This document shows, in pieces, positions 28,901 through 42,100 of a DNA stretch of 64,000 bases. Source of the DNA: Octopus sinensis (Eukaryota). Position 1 is the stretch's first letter. Each line of letters begins with the position of its first letter. Position numbers: made by a program. Location: the NCBI RefSeq assembly GCF_006345805.1, contig NC_043019.1:16925360-16989359 (forward strand), given 5' to 3'.

Positions 28901-31900
28901 TACACTCTTTAGTTCTTGAGTTATCCAGTATATTCAACCATTTTTAAGATGGCAGGCAAAGCTTGAGGGTGATTTTGTTGCTATTTCTAGCAGGTTTCTT
29001 TTGATGTAAAACTTCATATAGAATAATATAATAGTCTGGTACTTTGGGAGACCAAACTTATTATTAAAATAGTTTTTTTTTATTATTAAAAAAAAAAAAG
29101 AAAGAAAAAAAAAAGAATTGCCTCAAATTGTTCCTTTGAAACCAATCACTTTTGTTATGTTAAGAATAGTTTTGTTTTCGTTTTGAATGTTTATTCTTGC
29201 AGTAAAAGACTTCCTGATAACTTCAACATTCTCATTATTAACAGTCTGTGTTCATCCAGGTGTATTTGCTGTCAAAGATTAATTGATTTCATGAAACAAG
29301 GTTTAGGGATATTTTGTTCGAAATATGAAATACAAGCTGATGAACCCATAAACCTTATTCATATTTTGCATTCAAATAAATCCACGATTGTGTAGTTTGG
29401 TACTTTTGTTCTTTCTTTTCACCAACAACTGAAGTTTAGAACAGAACCAGCAAAGTTGCGAGTTCAGCTGCAAACATTTGTTGTTTTCGTTTTCTTCTTT
29501 TTTTTCCCCTCCATATTTTCTGTAGAGACTTGATTCCTTCGAAATGTCAAACCACATTTAACACTGCTGCCATTGCAGTGACTTATGAAAGTTCGTTTCA
29601 CATCACAAGATTGGATTCATAGCAAACAGTTGTTGGAGTCGGACTCTAGTCAGACTCATAGCAGACTCTGTGAATATTTCCAGTTGTGTGGTGCAGTGCA
29701 ACAGCTTTTCAAACGATCAAAAATTTTAATATGCAAAGATGGGACTCCCTCCATTCATGGTCTTACCTCTTCTCTTTGGAGTGTATTCTCGATCAAAATA
29801 ACTCCCATCTTGATATCCACTTTTTCTCCTAGAGATAAACAAAAACACAGCTAGAAGCAAACATAAATGAACAGAATAATATGAATATAAAGTATGGCTT
29901 CTATGCATTTCCTCTCAGTTTAAGTGTTGGATGTGTATACATGTAAAGCATAAGAGATGACAGCTTCTTTCAGCAGGGCAGGTTTTTATAACTTGAATGG
30001 TGTGTAACATGTATTTGGATATGATGTGCTGCAGTGATTATTTTTATGGGAAATACTTCTCCCAAACGCAAAAACAACAAACCAAAAGACAAAACCCTCG
30101 ATAGCAAAGTGACAGTACTACCCACTTTATAGATTCGTAGAACCCGATTTAATACTTATCCAATGTAAGGCAGCAAGCTGGCAGAATCGGTAGCATGTCA
30201 GACAAAATGCTTAGGGGCATTTCATCCATCTCTGTGTTCTGAGTTCAAATTCCACCAAGGTCGACTTTGCTTTTCATCCTTTCGGGGTTGATAAAACAGG
30301 TGTCAGCTGAGTACTGGGGTCGATATAATCGACTTACCTGCTGCTCCCGAAATTGCTGGCCTTGTGCCAAAATTTGAAATCAATACTTATAATCCAGTTT
30401 TCCAATTATAAGTTAAACAGTGACAATAGATTTTTCACTGAGTGACAGAGAGAGAAAGAGAGAAAGAAAGCGGGAGAGCACTTGCCATTTAGCTTTAGGA
30501 TTGTATGATTCTCACCACAAAATGATCTTTGAGAGGAAATGTGGAAGAAAATAAGGAGAAATAAAGCCTTAGTCGTGAATATTCTCTCAGGAGTTGAAAC
30601 CTAAAACAGCAGTTGGCTGCTGCTGTTAGTGTTTTGCAACAGCAAAGGCTCTTTCCTGATTCTCATCAACAAAATATGCAACATTAAAAGAGAACCGTTG
30701 CACATTATGCCTGATGTCTTCGTGCAAATTCTTACCTAAATTGCACAACAAAATCCTGGCCATTCTAAATATTTAGAATCATTGTAGTAGATGGAAATTA
30801 TCAAAGTTTTCCAGACTTCAAAAGATGGTCAGTTTGTTAGATTTCTCCAGTAAAGCCTCAAAAGTATTAAATTATAATTCAAATTCCATGGCTTCTGTAT
30901 TTTCTACTCATCATCTTCTGGTTTGTTGTCATGTCTGCTCCTCTTCCTTTCTTCTTAACATGTCTCTCTCTTACAAAACAACACGCTAGCTTTAAACATT
31001 ATTTTGTATGGCTAACATTTTGTTGGGTTCACACCAAACAATAAACGAAAGATTTGAAATGAAATAGCATTTCATTTCTATCGTTTCCTTTTGCCGCTTA
31101 CAGCCCACAGCCAAACATGTAGTGTGTGTGTGTGTGTGTGTGTGTTACAAAAAAAAAAAAAAAACACTAGCAAAGAAAGGAGAAGCTCGTCATGTAAATG
31201 CTGCTCATTAACCTAAATATTTATAATGATGATAGAATAAATTATTATTGTGTTCCAGTGTTCTTCTTCAGAGTCCCAGAGTAAGGGTTGCCCTCTGCCA
31301 AAAGCTCGTGTATAGGTTTGTATTTATCAGCTGTAAAAATAGAGTTTTACATGCAGAAAGAAGTTCTTGCCTGGGCCCTTGCTTCCAAGAAATCCACATT
31401 TCTTGCAATATTCCTCGTTTGTTGTTGAAGTGAAACAGTGTCCCTCTTCCTATGCAGGCAATGCCACACCTGTTGTTTATCGGTGTCATCCCACCTGTCA
31501 TGAAATCTCAGTGATTCAGTCACATGGACATCGACTCTGAAAGGGCTTCTCTTGTCAGATGTGGTGATGCAGACAGTAAACAATATTGGTAACAGGGCAG
31601 ATGATGTGGACGTTACAAAGAATGTGACAGGCCAGCAATCAACAACATATGCGTAAATACTTCAAAGGAATAAGAAAGGATTTCCCCAGCATTGCAGGTT
31701 TCAGCTAATAGGCAATAAAACACCAATAAAACTGTTCGCCCAAGACATCACAGTGTACTATAACCTTCATTGATCTTCGGAGACTTTCTATAGGTAACAG
31801 AATAGAATTTTCCTTTCTTTGTAATTCATTTGTTTGTATCTGGAATAATACAGCAGATGCAGACTAAACTGGCCACTCAGCTAATTAAAAAAAAACACTC

Positions 31901-39100: not shown

Positions 39101-42100
39101 TTTGTTTCACCTGCCTTTGAGGTATTCTGCAATTTTTTAAGCCCTGTAAGTCTTTAACCCTTTTGTTACCAACCCGGCTGAAACCGGCTCTGGCTCTGAG
39201 TACAAATGTCTTGTTTTCATAAGTTTTAAATTAAAATTTTCCACTAAACCTTAGTCACAATTTATGTTCCTAACACTATCTGAATGATAACTAAGTTATT
39301 TTACTAAATCCTTTGTTAGATTTAAAATTTATTGAAAGAAACACAGAGTATCTCAAAATAAATACAGTAACGAATACAGTAATGAAATACCACAACCTAA
39401 AAGGTGTTTAATAGCACACATGCATTATGTGACATTAACAACTTATTTATTGGGCAAATGCAGTTGTAATACAACCTTATTTACTGATCTGTCACAGTAC
39501 AACTGTTACATGATCTGTTATAAGAAAATGTTTACTGACCTGTCATAGTAATATTGGTCATCATTCCATGAGTGAGAATAGGGTGGTGACCTATAGCCAG
39601 AGCTATAGGGGCCATCATCATTCATTTCACGGTAATTATTTCTTTCATGAGAATCTACTGTCACAACTCGAAGTTCTTTGTAGTCAAGTTCTTCTTCTCC
39701 TGCATCAATAAGATCATACTGGCGGAGTTCCTCTCGATCAAATATAGGCCTTGTTCCTTCATTCTTCTGACGGATCATCACAAAATCATAGGGATTAAAC
39801 TCCCGCCGGACAGGCTGAGGAGGAGATCCAGATGCTACATGTGAATTTCGATGAATCCCAATTGTAATATTTTCATCAAAACGGAAAGGAGTATCTGGTT
39901 CAAGCATTTTAAAGCGTTCAGTCAGACTGCACCGTCTCTGGTTCTGTAGGTAGGCCCTACCAAGAGCCACACGGCTGTAGCTATCTTCAGGAATTAAAGC
40001 ATGTGATGACTGATAAGATCCTTGGGCGTAACCTGAAACCCCTGGAGACATTTTCCTACTGTTGAACGAAGGAGGTAATGGGTTATCATGATAGCTAGAA
40101 AGAGAAGTGTGCTGAGATGAATGACCAAATGGCTGTCCTGATGCTTTGTAACTGGAGCTCGGCTGTCCACCATAATCCATAGATGACATAGAGGGCACCA
40201 CTTGCCTGCTGCCACTGCCCCACATGGGTGACCTATGTGATAGAAATTAGGTAATAGTTACAATTCAATATTATGGATGGCACTTCTGAAATATTCAATA
40301 TCAAAAGATAAAATAAATAATGAAAAAAAACTAGGATTTCACAGATTATTTTCAATAAATACAGATAATAAAAATATCATTGTATATTAAAAAAAACTGA
40401 GAATGATGATGGCTTAAGATGACAAAAGGTTTGAAACACCAATTCAGATATATATCTGGAAATATGTTTGGAGCAGAAATATCTTGGCTCAGAGCCAAGT
40501 TTGGTTTTCTTTTCAAAACAAATCATCTGCACAGGTTGTTCAGAAAGAGTTTGCAGAACAATCTTGTCTGTCGTTTATGGTATGCATGTCTGTGGAGTAC
40601 TCAGCCACTTGTGAGTTAATGTTGTCCTCGTGTAGTAATGAAAATTGAAAGTGACATCCAATATCTGCTGTAGTTATTTCTCTTTGATTTACCAATGTGT
40701 CCATGTATCTATTTTCGCTTCGATGTATTTATCAGTCCACTCTGAATACAGTGATAAACATTTAGAAACAAAAAAATGCCACCTTCCTTTCAGTCACCAC
40801 TCTCTGTCTCTCCTCTCTCCCACTTTGCCACTCACTTCAACTATACCTCCTCTGCTTAATTCCTTTTCTCTTTTCTGTGTACCACTCCCTTCAACCTTTT
40901 TACCCCTTCTTTGAAGCAAGTGTGACACACACCACAGGTACATACGTAGAAAAACAAAAGTTAGCATATCAATATTTAGGATAAAAATTGTTTGTTTAAC
41001 AATAAATGCTTAAGGAAATGAAGAACTACTACCAGAGATATTGACACTGAACAAAAACCTGGTGCAATTTATTGGTCTATTGTATGCATTGTTATTATTG
41101 GGGTTGGCCAAAACGTCCATTTGGTTTTTTAAGCATAAATAAGAAACAAATTTTAAACACAAAGCTATTTATTCAATAAATGATATAATTGCCATCTAGC
41201 TTCAGTATCTTCTGCAATCTTGGGAGCAGATCCATTATTCTCTGTTCAAAGAATTCCATCTTCACTAGCAAAGAACTCTTTCAGGTGGATTCTTATGTCC
41301 TCTTCAGAGCTGAATGTCTATCCATTCACTGAATTTTGAAGAGACTGAAACAAGTAGAAATCTGAAGGTGCAAAGTCAGATGAATATGGAGGCTGAAGCG
41401 TTTGCAAAGAGGTGTGCAGCCTGACAGGATCATGAAAGACAATGCCCTAACAATTAGCATGTTCTGGATGCTTCTGGCGAATCACTACATTTAATTTGTC
41501 CTACTCGTCACAGTACACATCCAAATCAATGGTCCTATTCATGAGAAGAAGCTCATAAAAGGCAACACTTTTCCAATCCCCATCAAAGTCCAATTTTGGA
41601 GGTTGCTTGTGGTGGTTCACCAAGCTTCTCCCATGGTCGTTTGCACCTCACATTGTTATAGACAATCCATTCTTCATTCTCTGTCACCATTCTCTAGAGA
41701 AAAGCACCTCTGACATACACAACACATATCTTTCTACAGGTGTCTGCTGGTTTTTAACCCCACCTTGTTTTTTCTTAAATAAAAAAGTATGACATGCCAA
41801 TAATGTTTGTTTTGCTTCTCCATTTTCAGAGTGATCTCCAGCACACAAAATACAACCTGTCTCATCATAAGTTCATGTTGAACTACGTTAGTGTGTCAGT
41901 TAATTAACGAGTAAAAATGTGCAAAGGAAAGAAAAAATAAAGGAGGAGGGGGGGAGTGCGATGTCATATGCCTAAAACATAAGCCAAAGCAAAAAGGAAA
42001 CTCTTTGGCCAACCCAATATAATACAATGGCTGTTTTTCTGTTTATGACATTAACAGGGAAAAGTTGAATCAAACAAGTATTTTAATGTTGATGACACTA

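Follow-up and report, generated by a model that had tools for sequence, protein, structure and literature searches.

The locus described here raises the question of whether a single octopus protein unites motifs of insect Transformer/Feminizer (Tra/Fem) with those of vertebrate BCLAF1/THRAP3, as had been proposed in a first-pass annotation of the DNA, and what such a combination would say about the ancestry of either group. The window, that is, the whole 64,000-nucleotide stretch of Octopus sinensis DNA that was analysed (RefSeq assembly GCF_006345805.1, contig NC_043019.1, positions 16,925,360 to 16,989,359 of the forward strand), contains a 10-exon gene on the minus strand (coding sequence [CDS], 55811..21318) that encodes an arginine/serine (RS)-rich protein of 591 amino acids (aa), identical to O. 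sinensis XP_029649731.1 (P0012, 591 aa). This gene is likely an orthologue in a single-copy bilaterian family of disordered serine/arginine-rich (SR)-related proteins, the arthropod members of which are Transformer/Feminizer. The original proposal was drawn from the interval 29767..40232, which takes in only exons 3–6 of the 10-exon CDS; here, exon translations were searched singly, and public reference proteins (P0004 and P0012) were used for whole-protein work. All exons and motifs of the gene are on the minus strand and are given in window coordinates.

Homology to Transformer/Feminizer

The link to Tra/Fem lies in exon 3 (693 nt; 39540..40232), which was delimited by tblastn and splice sites and which codes for a Ser-rich linker, a TLxERF-type motif (SLTERF, 39911..39928), and an entire CAM block. 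Both halves of the CAM-like block reported in the first-pass annotation were located in this exon by translation, the first (DENITIGIHRN) at 39845..39877 and the second (NPYDFVMIRQKNEGTRPIFDREELRQY; NPYDF..PIFDREELRQY) at 39716..39796. The motifs SLTERF (exon 3), DDLRHSI (exon 5), and FDREYTPK (exon 6) are likewise present on the minus strand in the order originally described.

Profile searches connected this block to Tra/Fem in both directions. A profile of eight mollusc sequences (shared-word search) matched 17 proteins at E ≤ 1. Among them were a spider protein named Transformer in UniRef (E = 5e-6), a Feminizer from bee that bears SDP_N and Apis_Csd (E = 1e-3), and an SDP_N protein of cockroach (E = 0.1). 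An exhaustive search of 1.84 billion representatives with an 11-mollusc profile, consisting of one round with no further iteration, returned 103 matches at E ≤ 1e-3, of which 100 were scanned against Pfam, the other three being members of the query alignment. SDP_N (Pfam PF12278; cut-off, 25 bits) was found in 16 of the 100 scanned matches at E ≤ 0.01, ten of them at or above the cut-off (top score, 190 bits), and Btz (PF09405; cut-off, 22 bits) in 27, 23 of which reached the cut-off; eight matches carried both domains (E ≤ 0.01). Reciprocally, a hidden Markov model (HMM) built from 13 SDP_N-positive proteins scored exon 3 of the window at 58.3 bits (E = 9e-11, Z = 1.84e9), aligning to exon residues 121–203, which correspond to the CAM block, and the IxIxIHR pattern of the first CAM half occurs in SDP_N proteins such as the bee Feminizer. 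With profiles succeeding in both search directions, the claim that the octopus protein is a Tra/Fem homologue through its CAM block is well supported at the level of sequence. The link was already hinted at by automatic annotation, UniRef naming the O. bimaculoides protein ‘Complementary sex determination N-terminal domain-containing protein’.

Taken as bare strings, the short motifs are weak evidence and do not exceed chance, since exact 5-mers common to P0012 and shuffled 950-aa RS-rich decoys were frequent (mean, 2.2; at least one in 88% of decoys), and EYTPK would be expected 0.13 times per 950-aa protein of similar composition; conservation must therefore decide. A search with exon 3 recovered O. 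bimaculoides XP_014777003.1 (94% identity), an Argonauta protein (71%), and the cephalopod-like P0006 (50%), and four bivalve proteins were added by a search with the full O. bimaculoides protein. No variation was seen among the 11 aligned mollusc orthologues at L, R, and F of SLTERF, throughout NITIGIHR in the first CAM half, at G, F, D, R, E, and E of EGxxPIFDREE, or at N, P, D, L, R, and H of NPDDLRH. Across 50 family members, the E, G, F, R, and E of the second CAM half were at least 90% conserved, E280 and G281 forming its Glu-Gly pair. The expectation that the short motifs would be conserved in other molluscs accordingly holds for TLxERF and DLRH, both of which extend beyond molluscs (TLHERF/TLSERF was seen in spiders, horseshoe crab, and a gastropod), but not for FDREYTPK, which is restricted to octopods.

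A bilaterian family with a Btz-type end

The named members of the family come from cephalopods, bivalves, gastropods, a nemertean (Tubulanus), Priapulus, spiders, horseshoe crab, bee, and cockroach, with a fluke protein as a weak member (E = 0.08). Members from three echinoderm species (Amphiura, Anneissia, and Antedon) extend the family to the deuterostomes. A motif table revealed a collinear scaffold of TLxERF, IxIxIHR, EGxxPIFDREE, DLRH, [YF][YF]xHDxR, RG, and WxHD, and an HMM of 47 non-cephalopod members scored P0012 at 135.9 bits. In a quick maximum-likelihood tree of 40 rows, molluscs, echinoderms, and chelicerates each clustered, with one row per named species, as expected from orthology.

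Individual sequences show unusual features. In Amphiura filiformis P0054 (816 aa), a CAM-like stretch (~residue 395) precedes TLSSRF (475), and either the TLxERF-before-CAM order is not universal or TLSSRF is a chance match. The SDP_N protein P0078 (587 aa) has the second CAM half (EGSKPIFDREE) three times in tandem (151, 282, and 413), with three SDP_N stretches, which reflects either triplication in a Tra-like protein or an error of assembly. Mya arenaria P0038/P0127 (1077/1284 aa), named ‘zinc finger CCCH domain-containing protein 13-like’ by NCBI, possess the ITIGIHR and DLR blocks of the family (E = 5e-37) without the Btz-type end; this model could have arisen by fusion or mis-merging, or it could represent a divergent paralogue.

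The ancestral layout would have consisted of an N-terminal RS domain, TLxERF, a two-part CAM (IxIxIHR ... EGxxPIFDREE), NPxDLRH, and a Btz-type pair, W..PE..PK...Y[FY]xHDxR and WxHD, flanking an arginine/glycine (RG) tract. According to PMC4797287, BTZ, BCLAF1, and THRAP3 have in common an HDxR motif, invariably with P at −8 and −12, and a WxHD downstream of it; the WxHD of BTZ mediates eIF4A3 binding; and HDxR/WxHD also occurs in CASC3 and WxHD in ALYREF. Among 63 fetched family proteins of at least 380 aa, P(-12)-P(-8)-HDxR was present in 34, with WxHD downstream in 30 of these 34 (the oyster example of P...P.......HDxR is PEMIPKHPMYFEHDNR). Bivalves, gastropods, chelicerates, the priapulid, and echinoderms retain both motifs, and the cephalopod-like P0006 retains HDxR and not WxHD. 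The Btz model reached its cut-off in 5 of 14 and 23 of 100 orthologues and matched 19 of 50 at E ≤ 10; no match at the 22-bit cut-off was found in P0004–P0006 or P0012. The octopus protein has both the RS-rich N-terminus (exon 2) and the RG tract (exon 9) and, set against the proposed ancestor, would retain RS, TLxERF, CAM, DLRH (on a skippable exon), and RG, having lost the cores of both Btz-type motifs. The suggestion that the combined architecture survives especially in this animal is thereby overturned: octopods lost HDxR and WxHD and other lineages retain them, such that the octopus represents the architecture in degenerate form and its candidacy as the best-preserved bridge was dismissed.

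A related correction applies to FDREYTPK (29774-29797), located in the octopod-specific segment of exon 6 (62 nt; 29767..29828) and originally equated with a vertebrate WDPEYTPKSKKY-type motif. The string is identical in Octopus and Argonauta only; P0006 has YYDGDYESK at this position and bivalves have unrelated basic residues. The non-cephalopod HMM, in agreement with MAFFT, aligned FDREYTPK with low-complexity sequence that lies upstream of the Btz-type motif and placed octopus DKYSDWKDVHDINNRSRGFHE|LGSK (exon 8/9) on the Btz-type motif columns. The family counterpart of the W-PEY-PK motif is therefore ~30 residues downstream of FDREYTPK, in exon 8 (62 nt; 22826..22887; DKYSDWKDVHDINNRSRGFHE) and at its junction with exon 9, where alignments reveal a decayed version of W..PE..PK...YFEHDxR (HDxR); the two segments are separate places because P0006 has both. 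The alignments, the octopod-only occurrence, and P0006 together rule out an equivalence of FDREYTPK with the vertebrate motif. A phase-0 intron at the junction of exons 8 and 9 (22826/21696) follows E (..FHE|LG..) inside the HDxR-type motif, and bivalve genomic open reading frames (ORFs) end at the matching point (..PMYFE|).

Several observations weigh against the placement of the octopus gene in this family. No Pfam family was found in five minus-strand ORFs, including exons 3, 5, and 6, at E ≤ 1, or in three full-length cephalopod proteins (P0004–P0006) and P0012 at E ≤ 10. The curated SDP_N model (25-bit cut-off) reached none of the cephalopod proteins searched and matched 13 of 50 family members at E ≤ 10. 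Because the Pfam models miss the octopus protein, its SDP_N membership rests on family profiles and not on the curated model. HDxR and WxHD are absent from the Octopus and Argonauta proteins (P0012, P0004, and P0005), and any role of the octopus protein at the exon junction complex (EJC) is therefore doubtful. A search of PDB sequences at E ≤ 10, made with the family profile and with a bivalve-like protein (P0020), gave weak unrelated matches only, with no CASC3, THRAP3, or BCLAF1 chain; in the absence of a CASC3 chain, the Btz assignment rests on Pfam scores of 22–45 bits. The tree was a quick search of mostly disordered sequence, with SH-aLRT support only and composition warnings in several rows, and the roles that may be ascribed to the RS, CAM, and RG parts are analogies.

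Possible kinship with BCLAF1 and THRAP3

Vertebrate BCLAF1/THRAP3 carry, according to the first-pass annotation, the motifs TL[NH]ERF, IHRR, and DLRHDI. The first-pass annotation derived Tra/Fem and BCLAF1/THRAP3 from one SR-like ancestor; the profiles uphold the Tra half of this proposal, whereas recruitment of the vertebrate family PF15440 (cut-off, 27 bits) failed. In the recruitment check with the mollusc profile, SDP_N and Btz proteins were found and the PF15440 cut-off was reached by 0 of the 100 matches scanned in the exhaustive search. PF15440 had no match in exons 3, 5, and 6 (E ≤ 1), in P0004–P0006 (E ≤ 10), or in P0012, and its one match among 50 family members at E ≤ 10, a nemertean protein, scored 17.5 bits (below 27) over the RS-rich N-terminal part. 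These results argue against THRAP3/BCLAF1 (and BCLAF3) being chordate co-orthologues that, with Tra/Fem, descend from one bilaterian SR-like, EJC-associated protein, a derivation in which the vertebrate ‘IHRR’ would be a vestige of the first CAM half and which is entertained here tentatively, as a proposition that could nearly as readily be right as wrong.

In favour of such co-orthology, a language-model atlas placed chordate PF15440 clusters as the top named neighbours of the octopod protein, both whole and in part. For whole P0004, the three best named clusters were all chordate PF15440 (0.86, below the 0.9 mark of the tool), and in two of these Pfam Btz is present as well (35% and 39% of members). 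For residues 205–450, a part without RS and without the Btz region, the best cluster was again PF15440 (0.89; 177 of 256 shared features), and the ten best named matches all belonged to the PF15440 family. Atlas scores <0.9 are leads only, their calibration excludes protein parts, and composition can drive them, which tempers their weight for co-orthology. The layout RS ... HDxR-RG-WxHD is alike in the two groups, HDxR with P at −8 and −12 and with WxHD downstream, the arrangement described for BCLAF1/THRAP3/BTZ in PMC4797287, occurs in 30 of the 63 family proteins, and the family extends to deuterostomes through the three echinoderm species. The putative vertebrate strings TL[NH]ERF...IHRR and DLRHDI also fit TLxERF, IxIxIHR, and DLRH in order.

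The same likeness may instead reflect portable eIF4A3- or messenger ribonucleoprotein (mRNP)-binding motifs on disordered RS/RG-rich proteins, with no whole-protein homology and with the TLxERF, DLRH, and EYTPK matches due to chance or convergence; this explanation is possible and somewhat doubtful. HDxR/WxHD in CASC3 and WxHD in ALYREF, both outside the family, indicate that these short motifs are portable, a point for this explanation and against co-orthology. Sharing of 5-mers with shuffled RS-rich decoys is common, as given above, FDREYTPK, the most striking match, is not positionally equivalent, and no HMM evidence joins the family to PF15440. Against portable motifs, conservation of TLxERF and DLRH extends across phyla, with their order fixed and their spacing similar, and, if the putative vertebrate motifs hold, chance would hardly yield four to six collinear blocks. 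In the atlas, the middle part of the protein, free of both RS and Btz, still neighbours PF15440 clusters.

On balance, homology with BCLAF1/THRAP3 is a plausible lead. Transformer/Feminizer, the CAM-plus-Btz proteins of molluscs, priapulids, chelicerates, and echinoderms, and THRAP3/BCLAF1/BCLAF3 might constitute one bilaterian orthogroup, a conclusion put forward with reservation and slightly nearer to doubt than to acceptance. Read in this way, the insect switch would have been recruited from an ancient RS-rich co-factor docking on the EJC via HDxR/WxHD, with holometabolous insects keeping the CAM, vertebrates the Btz-type end, and octopods the CAM and DLRH. A full-text literature search found, within the library searched, no paper linking Tra with BCLAF1/THRAP3 or Btz, the joint mentions that turned up being unrelated (for instance, the WTAP/m6A complex and machine-learning ‘transformers’), and the motif strings likewise led to nothing of relevance; the occurrences of ‘btz’ in PMC13673688 and PMC11191345 were journal DOIs only and were discarded.

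Protein structure, isoforms, and proposed function

An AlphaFold2 (AF2) model of exon 3 from a 54-row alignment had a mean pLDDT of 58.9 and a pTM of 0.25, with the second half of the CAM as its sole confident part (pLDDT ~86–89), and the protein is, as modelled, largely disordered. Exon 5 (165 nt; 32750..32914; NPDDLRHSI 32776-32802, DDLRHSI 32776-32796) is an in-frame cassette coding for residues 380–434, and exactly these 55 residues are missing in O. sinensis isoform X2 (P0013) and from the O. vulgaris model CAI9739752.1 (P0011). The O. bimaculoides model P0015 (392 aa) ends in a different tail straight after exon 4. The exon 5 unit was also seen in bivalve genomic ORFs.

By analogy with Tra and SR-related proteins, the protein may be a nuclear splicing/mRNP co-factor. 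Its RS domain would then dock it to SR proteins and the spliceosome, its CAM block would be the conserved site at which partners bind, and contact with RNA would fall to its RG tail. The HDxR/WxHD pair of non-octopod members is predicted to bind eIF4A3 of the EJC, as in BTZ, a contact that octopods probably gave up.

Were the octopus protein a working insect-type Transformer, it would be a sex-specifically spliced switch controlling sexual differentiation, which appears highly improbable. Two hallmarks of Tra are present, the RS domain (exon 2 is RS/SP-rich, as in the orthologues) and the CAM domain with its Glu-Gly pair (the 58.3-bit alignment; E280 and G281), and annotated isoforms exist, with exon 5 skipping in P0013 and P0011 and the truncated O. 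bimaculoides P0015. Against this, the proline-rich C-terminus, a defining Tra feature according to PMC6721801, was not found, as exons 9 and 10 code for an Arg/Gly/Ser-rich tail (read from the sequence, with no statistic applied). The same source describes a conserved splice junction just before the Glu-Gly of the insect CAM domain; in the octopus no such junction exists, both CAM halves being inside the single exon 3 (40232..39540). It further reports that Daphnia tra is without sex-specific splicing and that the splicing cascade arose within insects. The family is, moreover, widespread in animals of very different sex-determination systems, which also speaks against such a switch.

Gene model and surrounding sequence

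A tblastn search of the window with P0012 gave 10 collinear pieces, all with 100% identity barring junction artefacts. All introns are GT-AG, the 10 coding exons total 1776 nt (591 codons plus TAA), and the window is without any N. Exon 1 (55765..55811; tblastn of P0012 and splice sites) starts with ATG at 55811-55809 and codes for MPLPKRRSPGHRKDR plus 2 nt before a GT donor. Exon 2 (318 nt; 49666..49983), bounded by AG/GT, codes for the RS/SP-rich N-terminal domain and its translation is a 100% match to P0012 residues 16–122. The remaining exons were placed by tblastn, splice sites, and translation, and include exon 4 (81 nt, in frame; 37529..37609), exon 7 (57 nt; 24287..24343; (D)SKYSKTSSDPALSFSKHS), exon 9 with the Arg/Gly-rich tail (211 nt; 21486..21696; RRGRGR 21487-21504), and exon 10 (21318..21397), which is without WxHD and closes with the stop TAA at 21320-21318. 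Both ends of the interval in the first-pass annotation, 40232 and 29767, proved to be true AG/GT splice boundaries, and its exon numbers were right. Two ORFs considered for exon 4 (36895-37140 and 31350-31661) are not exons, the true exon 4 being 37609..37529.

Intron 2 contains an AT-dinucleotide microsatellite of ~2.65 kb (46160-48813; 1337 copies, 78% matches), which is the cause of a dip in GC to 0.11, as well as a DDE_3-like ORF (42412-42825, minus strand; 26.7 bits, slightly below the cut-off) that is a transposon remnant. Two further transposon remnants are RVT_1 reverse-transcriptase ORFs, one in intron 1 (52553-52948, minus strand; 31.3 bits) and one upstream of the gene (59317-59940, plus strand; 103 bits). 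Downstream of the gene, an ORF at 7530-7952 (minus strand) matches the last part of FKTN_N, the N-terminal domain of Fukutin (41.7 bits), and probably belongs, as an exon, to a neighbouring fukutin-like gene.

Implications for the origin of tra

The origin of tra was still to be pinpointed according to PMC6721801, in which the problem is said to be one that ‘might be intractable’ given that Tra is poorly conserved and repetitive. The profiles described here place orthologues that bear the CAM in molluscs, a nemertean, a priapulid, and echinoderms and tie the CAM to a Btz-type HDxR/WxHD module, and tra ancestry therefore becomes testable. This tie suggests that the ancestral job was at the EJC. 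If THRAP3/BCLAF1 do belong to the orthogroup, two separately studied groups of splicing/mRNP factors would merge into one, and BCLAF1 and THRAP3, the HDxR and WxHD of which had no known function when PMC4797287 was written, would gain invertebrate genetic models. The phase-0 intron in the HDxR-type motif is a possible marker for comparison with vertebrate THRAP3/BCLAF1 genes. What is learned about the octopus gene as such is modest: it is annotated and uncharacterised, and its O. bimaculoides counterpart already bears the SDP_N name in UniRef.

Comparison with known systems

Compared to CASC3/Barentsz, a core EJC subunit, the wider family has HDxR and WxHD of the same Btz type, and the octopus protein differs in having no Btz match; CASC3 is not known to have the RS-CAM-DLRH part. 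The vertebrate proteins THRAP3/BCLAF1/BCLAF3 (PF15440) have in common with the octopus protein an RS-rich N-terminus, and no full CAM block is known in any of them. The octopus protein differs from them in its lack of HDxR and WxHD and of a PF15440 match, and the mollusc profile recruits none of them at E ≤ 1e-3; the C-terminal HDxR-RG-WxHD they possess is, going by PMC4797287, that found across the family.

The resemblance to Tra/Fem (SDP_N, PF12278; TRA-CAM) includes the RS-rich N-terminus, the two-part CAM with E-G and PIF[DE]REE, and, in the spider and horseshoe-crab members, a TLxERF-like motif upstream. In contrast to Tra/Fem, the octopus protein has an RG-rich tail in place of a proline-rich C-terminus and is missed by the SDP_N model, and unlike in insects its CAM is on one exon. 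The ‘Btz domain-containing protein’ orthologues of molluscs, echinoderms, priapulid, and chelicerates have kept P(-12)-P(-8)-HDxR and WxHD, unlike Octopus and Argonauta, and many reach the Btz cut-off. These orthologues belong to the same gene family as the octopus protein and follow the same block order, and those of bivalves have in common with it the exon 5 unit as well as the phase-0 intron that interrupts the HDxR motif.

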